This document shows positions 16,198 to 16,351 of a DNA stretch of 21,722 nt, piece after piece. The first letter of the stretch is position 1. Every line of letters begins with the position of its first letter. The translations under genes were made by a program, and so were the position numbers. The stretch lies in the IMG/VR virus record IMGVR_UViG_2778261217_000005, one strand, 5' to 3'. The stretch is from a virus (Duplodnaviria > Heunggongvirae > Uroviricota > Caudoviricetes). The notes under the pieces were generated by a model. That model had not been told where the DNA came from and made no database searches. It saw nothing but the letters and a program-made list of their open reading frames with translations.

Positions 16198-16273
16198 GCC
16201 GACTTAGCTCAGCAGGTAGAGCAACTGACTTGTAATCAGTAGGTCACCAGTTCGATTCCGGTAGTCGGCACCA
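16198..16273 (+). tRNA. tRNA-Thr (anticodon UGU), 76 nt with encoded CCA
   Basis: Hand-folded cloverleaf: acceptor GCCGACT/AGTCGGC, D-stem GCTC/GAGC, anticodon stem ACTGA/TCAGT with loop CTTGTAA, T-loop TTCGATT; one A-C mismatch in T-stem. Confidence 0.8.
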
Positions 16274-16276
16274 TAT

Positions 16277-16351
16277 GCGGGTATCGTATAATGGCTATTA
16301 CCTCAGCCTTCCAAGCTGATGATGCGGGTTCGATTCCCGCTACCCGCTCCA
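16277..16351 (+). tRNA. tRNA-Gly (anticodon UCC), 75 nt with encoded CCA
   Basis: Acceptor GCGGGTA/TACCCGC, anticodon stem TCAGC/GCTGA with loop CTTCCAA, T-arm GCGGG-TTCGATT-CCCGC, discriminator U. Confidence 0.8.

Follow-up and report, generated by a model that had tools for sequence, protein, structure and literature searches.

Transfer RNA (tRNA) genes located downstream of the late-gene regulator Q are a textbook feature of lambdoid and Shiga toxin (Stx) phages. In phage 933W the order is Q, pR′/qut, terminators, a putative tRNA promoter, ileZ argN argO, a terminator, stx2AB and the lysis genes S R Rz, and the same slot holds tRNAs in phi467, JLK-2012, PhiR47_1 and SfI. The tRNA loci of the Stx2f phage phi467 are mentioned in PMC5189129, and for the Shigella phage SfI, which carries a tRNA-Thr(UGU) downstream of Q, a bias towards the codon ACA has been offered as the reason (PMC3636060). 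Here we analyse a tRNA-Thr(UGU)/tRNA-Gly(UCC) gene pair found in the equivalent place of a 21,722-nt stretch of DNA (IMG/VR record IMGVR_UViG_2778261217_000005, hereafter the window), which is a full-length Rac-type lambdoid prophage of Escherichia coli. Sequence comparison indicates that this pair is a captured and trimmed piece of the tRNA cluster of the host tufB operon, from which tyrU has been lost.

The 933W cluster and the pair of the window share their slot, 3′ of Q and upstream of lysis genes and cargo, with terminators on the flanks. However, ARAGORN finds no ileZ, argN or argO in the window, which also lacks toxin genes, and the 933W tRNAs serve AUA, AGA and AGG where the window pair serves ACA and GGA. 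Furthermore, whereas the window pair consists of near-copies of host housekeeping tRNAs, the tRNAs of 933W are no such copies. The two systems meet in relatives of the window: at least 60 contigs join the Thr-Gly pair directly to ileZ-identical and argN-type genes. Closer still are phi467, vB_EcoS-683R6, JLK-2012, PhiR47_1 and SerU-LTIIb, in which a Thr-Gly pair 95-100% identical to ours, with the same 3-nt spacing, lies in the Q-to-lysis region. These phages differ from the window in what surrounds the pair: stx2f lies upstream of it in phi467 (the pair itself standing between stx2f and S-R-Rz), JLK-2012 has Asn-Thr-Gly after Q, some of the described relatives add Asn, or ileZ plus Lys, and SerU-LTIIb has duplicated the pair and changed one anticodon to UCU. 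The preliminary description of the window had likened its position to that of the tRNA cluster of Stx phages, and the layouts of 933W and phi467 bear this out. SfI and its relatives (Sf6, ST64T, PS3 and phage 21), likened here by description, are likewise lambdoid phages with a tRNA-Thr(UGU) 3′ of Q, but its partner is tRNA-Asn(GUU) and not tRNA-Gly. Literature searches on the ileZ-argN-argO cluster, on prophage thrU/glyT and on codon use in relation to Rac prophage tRNAs and trkG returned nothing relevant. The pair is already known in kind, being annotated in RefSeq and in several phage records, and its novelty is low; what we add is modest: an origin in the host operon, witnessed by a tyrU relic, and figures for the extent of the distribution and for constraint.

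ARAGORN found exactly two tRNA genes in the window, both on the + strand (Table 1), and the coordinates, anticodons and 3-nt spacing first read by hand all proved exact when compared with the ARAGORN calls and the sequence. Rfam accepts both folds as well: each lies far above the gathering score of 29 of the tRNA model RF00005 and covers model positions 1-71, as a full-length cloverleaf of the canonical bacterial elongator type does, and neither predictor rejected them as pseudo-tRNAs. The CCA end is encoded in both. RefSeq carries both as annotated genes in E. coli genomes 99.6% identical over the 801-nt tRNA region, and one E. coli genome contains the 154-nt pair at 100% identity. To judge by their sequences, both are real, functional-looking tRNA genes.

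Where do they come from? A search with the 154-nt pair gave matches in 5421 of the 5426 complete E. coli genomes. The typical match consists of two pieces at 98.1% identity, annotated tRNA-Thr / tRNA-Tyr / tRNA-Gly, and corresponds to the host housekeeping operon thrU-tyrU-glyT-thrT-tufB; the median number of matching places per genome is one, as it should be if thrU and glyT are single-copy genes. The prophage tRNA-Thr equals thrU at 75 of its 76 bases, with a single D-loop change, T16C. The prophage tRNA-Gly equals glyT at 73 of 75, and its two changes pair together, turning C6:G66 of the acceptor stem into U6:A66. Anticodon arms, discriminator bases, the first three acceptor pairs and the CCA ends are the same as in the host genes, discriminator bases and first acceptor pairs being the main identity elements for threonyl- and glycyl-tRNA synthetase (ThrRS and GlyRS). 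Near-identity thus runs over each full gene, including the anticodon arm and the acceptor identity positions, as expected of paralogues of thrU and glyT. Being near-copies, the prophage genes bring added gene dosage and no new decoding ability.

The prophage and host loci agree in anticodons, gene length, encoded CCA and the order of Thr before Gly. They differ in that the prophage pair is devoid of tyrU and of both long spacers, only 3 nt being left between the genes, has neither thrT nor tufB downstream, is preceded by another promoter and leader, sits inside a prophage, and carries C16 (Thr) and U6:A66 (Gly) in the window. Phage copies were collected with a pattern spanning the Thr-Gly junction, which the host operon cannot match. 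Among 135 collected copies the Thr gene is host-identical in 76 and the Gly gene in 60. The TAT spacer recurs in 131 of 138 copies, which argues for a single origin. One way to derive it is a deletion from thrU+1 to glyT-2, which would bring the t just 3′ of thrU next to the at just 5′ of glyT, although 3 nt are weak evidence. Two contigs with an ileZ-Lys-Thr cluster (L150 and L151; L-numbers denote collected loci or contigs) are more telling in this respect: directly after the Thr gene they keep the 8-nt thrU-tyrU spacer of the host unchanged, TCAAGTCC, and then the first 35 nt of tyrU, the homology stopping at the anticodon loop. Through this tyrU relic the phage Thr gene is linked to the host operon.

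The search of the 5,426 E. coli genomes gave 6579 matching places in 5421 of them, with up to 6 per genome and about 1,150 beyond the host locus; the wider context, the 801-nt region of the window, was found in 172 E. coli genomes. The junction pattern occurs in at least 120 IMG/VR contigs and in 12 places in species-representative genomes; the species with copies are E. coli, Shigella flexneri, E. albertii, E. ruysiae, Citrobacter braakii and Enterobacter hormaechei. The 12 places include one Thr-Gly pair of enterobacterial type on a 423-nt contig (NZ_RAVW01000911.1, L137, coverage 0.67) of the myxobacterial assembly of Corallococcus exercitus, most likely a contamination. The tRNA pair is the only part common to essentially all of the collected loci (about 135). 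Fewer share the Q-like gene (about 30), the leader hairpin (about 47 of 136), the 200 nt downstream (about 55-66) or the holin (about 58), and the pair is therefore a mosaic module in its own right. It stands alone in 56 copies, in the form Met(cat)-Lys(ttt)-Thr-Gly in 39 and as Met(cat)-Arg(tct)-Thr-Gly in 18, the rest having other forms. The ‘Met(cat)’ gene of the expanded clusters is identical to 933W ileZ, and their second gene has the body of 933W argN with differing anticodons. The pair is thus the constant core of a variable tRNA cluster that also covers AUA and AGA, and is among the most widespread prophage tRNA modules in E. coli.

Over the 32 distinct loci that share flanks with the window, divergence from the window amounts to 1.2% in the tRNAs versus 14% in the homologous flanks, and the tRNAs were the less diverged in 32 of 32 comparisons, which are not independent of one another. 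Pairing is equally well kept. Over 39 distinct variants 94.1% of the stem cells are paired, compared to 24-53% in slid-partner controls; compensatory double changes are found at Gly 6:66 (21 UA, 14 CG) and at Gly 48:64, and the Gly anticodon arm is invariant in 39 of 39. The two constant non-pairs of the alignment occur in host thrU and glyT as well. These comparisons indicate that the pair is under strong constraint, and the high frequency of phage-specific alleles that preserve the structure points to selection for function. Of the phage-specific Thr alleles the commonest, present in at least 26 copies, changes both D-loop uridines (T16C and T20C), the window having T16C only; positions 16 and 20 are typical dihydrouridine sites.

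Thr(UGU) and Gly(UCC) are the sole isoacceptors with a wobble U for their amino acids, and read ACA and GGA (plus GGG). Codon use was compared between the coding sequences annotated in the equivalent prophage of a complete E. coli genome (9,337 codons) and 65 host core genes (20,010 codons), with atp and tuf as highly expressed genes. Per 1000 codons, ACA and GGA reach 16.6 and 16.8 in the prophage, 7.1 and 6.7 in the host core, and 2.8 and 1.6 in atp+tuf, that is 2.3-fold and 2.5-fold enrichment over the core and about 6-fold and 10-fold over the highly expressed genes. The enrichment of the two codons in phage genes that had been anticipated is thus present. It is highest in trkG (20.7 and 26.9) and in the AT-rich mid cargo (26.1 and 19.0), and lower in the late structural genes (12.2 and 15.3). 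Indeed, trkG, with a G+C content at third codon positions of 0.32, shows the most extreme rare-codon use (ATA 35, GGA 27 and ACA 21 per 1000). Among 61 codons GGA ranks 4th and ACA 5th in enrichment, behind AGA, AGG and ATA, the three codons served by the ileZ/argN-type companion genes of the relatives; in absolute excess GGA and ACA are the largest of all.

The reading we favour, to which we give slightly better than an even chance, is that these are functional captured host tRNA genes which travel as a compact module and add supply for over-used codons. It builds on what is observed, intact genes of host origin, widely distributed, conserved in sequence and structure, placed between Q and lysis genes in a prophage enriched in their codons. 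A lambdoid phage would have captured the genes from an enterobacterial thrU-tyrU-glyT-thrT-tufB operon, losing tyrU, and the pair would since have moved as a compact module within the interval that separates the Q-like regulator gene from the lysis genes. A single precursor would be transcribed from the promoter-like block about 60-100 nt upstream and/or by phage read-through, and would be cut by RNase P and 3′ exonucleases. As the known identity elements have been kept, the host ThrRS and GlyRS would charge the products. A second gene copy would thereby be added for two isoacceptors that the host encodes once each, presumably to the benefit of translation of phage early, accessory and late genes. 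We regard such a supplementation of codons as plausible, though not as proven.

Several points weigh against this reading. The search pattern fixed 28 of the 154 positions and so slightly inflates the apparent conservation, and gene conversion with the host copies, instead of selection, could be partly behind the low divergence. A single extra gene copy may shift tRNA pools only slightly. Moreover, lambda, which has no tRNA genes, uses ACA and GGA at about 1.9 times the host level overall (13.7 and 13.1 per 1000), so that the bias is common to lambdoid phages in general, and a phage can cope without such tRNAs. The late genes of the Rac-type prophage are modestly richer in the two codons than those of lambda (12.2 and 15.3 versus 8.1 and 9.8, p ~0.03 and ~0.01), in what is a comparison with a single phage.

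The case of lambda, which does without such tRNAs despite a similar codon bias, also speaks for an explanation that we regard as unlikely though worth weighing: that the pair is passenger DNA, a fragment of the host operon brought in by illegitimate recombination, of little or no benefit, and kept intact by recombination or conversion with the host genes. The pair is indeed near-identical or identical to the host genes, and accessory genes (stx, LT-II, tciAB, trkG) are known to accumulate in this slot. However, passenger DNA is not expected to diverge about 12 times more slowly than the flanks inherited with it, nor to persist in at least four genera and in many combinations of unrelated flanks. 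The persistence of structure-preserving phage alleles, U6:A66 in more than 38 of 135 copies and C16/C20 in at least 26, is likewise against simple homogenisation.

The relatives of the window provide several anticodon variants. In SerU-LTIIb (KU052038.1, L003 1122-1197), an LT-IIb prophage, the tRNA pair and the holin region are duplicated, and one copy has a thrU-type body in which the anticodon TGT has become TCT (Arg, AGA), with A31G and G24A in addition. This gene looks like an anticodon switch on a Thr body; its position 20 is C, and A20 is preferred by ArgRS, the arginyl-tRNA synthetase. The reverse change, from Arg UCU to Thr UGU, is reportedly a classic laboratory case, from Saks, Sampson and Abelson in 1998. 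A rare second type of switch, a thrU-type body with the Lys anticodon TTT, was seen in seven IMG/VR contigs, inside ileZ-(Lys/Arg)-X-Gly clusters (Table 1). The slot-2 tRNA, between ileZ and Thr (L004 3927-4003 and about 45 other loci), has the body of 933W argN (L140 2206-2282) with C1-G72. Its anticodon loop is CTTCGAA (TCG) in 933W, CTTCTAA (TCT) in other cases and most often CCTTTAA (TTT), and shortened, degenerate forms also occur. The CCTTTAA loop has a C at position 33, where a U is near-universal in tRNAs. These slot-2 loop variants may be relevant to the evasion of anticodon nucleases.

Neutralisation of tRNA-cleaving defences, among them PARIS, retron effectors and anticodon nucleases, is a known function of phage tRNAs (PMC11464382, PMC11555353, PMC10264068). 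The pair could accordingly serve in counter-defence, replenishing Thr(UGU) and Gly(UCC) depleted during infection by a tRNA-targeting nuclease or toxin of the host or of a competitor, or acting as decoys, with the changes in D-loop and acceptor stem as escape variants. The link in relatives between the pair and an argN-type tRNA with a UUU anticodon and the unusual C33 is in keeping with this possibility, as is the fact that the recurring phage-specific alleles fall outside the anticodon arm. But the majority of the phage copies do not differ from the host genes at all, no tRNA-Thr or tRNA-Gly target is named in the PARIS and retron papers, and no tRNA-targeting system was identified in the window; we consider a counter-defence role improbable. 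Evasion by anticodon-loop mutation in particular is ruled out for the window, whose anticodon arms are those of host thrU and glyT. A broader version, in which the module would go beyond added dosage and be an evolving phage tRNA toolkit, with C16/C20 and U6:A66 as escape variants against a tRNA-targeting toxin or defence directed at the D-loop or acceptor stem and the Thr body repeatedly re-assigned by anticodon switching, seems to us highly doubtful.

A further explanation would deny the pair a decoding role, the tRNAs being mainly processing signals for the late transcript, or targets for recombination or attachment. Two things are in its favour: the surrounding non-coding DNA resembles a leader, with several terminators and a conserved hairpin on the 5′ side, and a preprint takes tRNA matches near prophage small RNAs (sRNAs) as integration hot spots (bioRxiv 10.64898/2026.05.13.724894). 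However, a processing signal or an attachment core would have no need of the Gly anticodon arm that is invariant over 39 variants, and both genes run the full length of a tRNA and have kept their anticodon loops, identity elements and CCA intact. We judge this role very improbable, the least probable of those considered here. That the pair is an att-site remnant is ruled out: the genes are full-length and some 15 kb away from the integrase end, and the prophage adjoins ttcA and does not sit in a tRNA gene. Lysogeny dependent on the tRNAs is ruled out too, since 5421 of 5426 genomes have the host thrU-glyT locus; the genomes carrying this prophage have at least two matching places per record, the host locus being kept. 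In three collected loci (L004, L140 and L141) the tRNAs near Pas/STnc100 sRNAs are full-length phage-borne genes of the Q-lysis slot, of ileZ/argN and thrU/glyT types, and the reading of such matches in the preprint as integration hot spots or insertion remnants may need revisiting.

Table 1. Features of the Thr-Gly tRNA locus in the window and, where an L-number is given, in collected relatives.
Feature	Coordinates	Strand	Basis
tRNA-Thr, anticodon UGU (tgt)	16198-16273	+	ARAGORN; Rfam 72.2 bits, E = 2.6e-14
Spacer TAT, 3 nt	16274-16276	+	Sequence reading
tRNA-Gly, anticodon UCC (tcc)	16277-16351	+	ARAGORN; Rfam 65.6 bits, E = 1.8e-12
Q-like late-gene antiterminator candidate (DUF1133)	15303-15845	+	Pfam DUF1133 E = 1e-106; PHROG 753
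Intrinsic-terminator-like hairpin and T-run after the Q-like gene	15925-15955	+	Pattern scan, 13-pair stem
Promoter-like block upstream of the tRNAs: TTGACG, then TGGAAT/TATTAT candidates	16091-16134	+	Scan and conservation
Predicted leader hairpin directly 5′ of tRNA-Thr	16142-16194	+	Minimum-free-energy and centroid folds of 16136-16480
Terminator-like hairpin 3′ of the pair	16450-16471	+	Pattern scan; segment common to ~55-66 pair-carrying loci
STnc100-like element, sub-threshold, full-length	16548-16745	+	Rfam RF02076, 27.3 bits vs gathering 47
P21-type holin (essD)	17130-17345	+	RefSeq equivalent; Pfam Phage_holin_2_1
Lysozyme (rrrD)	17345-17842	+	RefSeq equivalent; Pfam Phage_lysozyme
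Rz (RefSeq: lysis protein)	17839-18303	+	RefSeq equivalent; Pfam Phage_lysis
tyrU relic after phage Thr gene	L151 3164-3275; L150 2162-2263		Sequence comparison with host operon
thrU-type genes with TTT anticodon	L081 3480-3555; L125 5501-5576; L144 6852-6927; L145 8503-8578; L146 5304-5379; L147 413-488; L149 4835-4910		

The pair does lie between Q and the lysis genes, as first described, with the Q-like gene upstream and the holin gene downstream (Table 1). The product of the Q-like gene matches PHROG 753, ‘anti-termination protein Q-like’, at E = 3e-79, and Pfam Phage_antitermQ marginally, at 26.8 bits versus a cut-off of 26; its homologue in phage vB_EcoS-683R6 carries the annotation antitermination protein Q. 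Compared with the solved Q structures in the PDB it has no significant match (best E > 0.08, Q21 E = 0.86), and membership of a structurally characterised Q family was dropped for this reason. On the sequence matches, the label ‘Q’ is a reasonable one for this candidate. The small open reading frames at 15724-15927 (+), 16340-16573 (-), 16414-16608 (+), 16624-16812 (-) and 16985-17146 (+) have no match in PHROG, and we therefore treated those between the tRNAs and the holin, together with the first, as non-coding.

In the interval upstream of the pair, the promoter scan gave TTGCGA-16-TATTAT at 16107-16134. From TTGACG, at 16091-16096, to the tRNA start the sequence is nearly invariant in 15 unique related loci, and the AT-rich DNA further upstream varies; the TATTAT of the scanner is TATCAT in most relatives. 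Promoter-like matches in the interval are no commoner than in shuffles (4 versus 3.6), and neither pR′/qut nor a start site could be placed in the Q-to-lysis interval. The leader hairpin, predicted to pair 16142-16147 with 16189-16194 and 16150-16155 with 16181-16186, is conserved in related loci. One relative (L086) has a 13-nt tandem duplication, GCTCGGTGATATC, in its loop, with the stem unchanged. Downstream of the pair, the STnc100-like match (E = 3e-4 to 1e-3, model positions 1-206) has its end at the strong terminator 16716-16735, some 390 nt before the holin, and may represent either a diverged sRNA of the STnc100/PasD type or a late-promoter leader RNA. STnc100 has been related to the PasD sRNAs of lambdoid prophages (bioRxiv 10.64898/2026.05.13.724894).

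The closest equivalent of the window among complete E. coli genomes (99.6% over 801 nt) adjoins ttcA. Its genes run in the order intR, xisR, ralR, recT, recE, kilR, immunity and replication genes, queH, DUF1367, YbcO, DUF1133 and the two tRNAs, which are followed on the 3′ side by essD, rrrD, Rz, trkG and then head and tail genes. The cargo of the window includes trkG (a potassium transporter gene; 18423-19898, +), which has Rz on one side and the ParB-like and terminase genes on the other. At 1557-1735 (+) and 1733-1927 (-) lies the known type I toxin-antitoxin pair of Rac, in which the sRNA antitoxin RalA (Rfam 222.9 bits) overlaps the gene of the toxin, ralR. A second translation-related cargo gene of the prophage, at 11927-12595 (+), encodes the epoxyqueuosine reductase QueH (Pfam E = 1e-65), a tRNA-modification enzyme that acts on tRNAs with GUN anticodons. 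QueH has no link to Thr or Gly tRNAs, and some relatives pair the Thr gene with a tRNA-Asn(GUU). An AT-rich island at 12600-14400 (GC 0.31-0.39), which has DUF1971 (13207-13551, minus strand) as its sole annotated gene and about 850 nt without annotated genes ahead of DUF1367, is probably acquired cargo or a decayed region.

In conclusion, taken alone a tRNA pair of this kind is routine, such genes being auto-annotated in hundreds of E. coli genomes. Its study carries a caution, in that tRNA matches in prophage late regions are not to be read as integration scars. It also offers a natural system for asking whether one extra copy of a minor tRNA gene matters to a temperate phage, and a clean one to test, since the phage and host alleles are set apart by 1-2 diagnostic bases.

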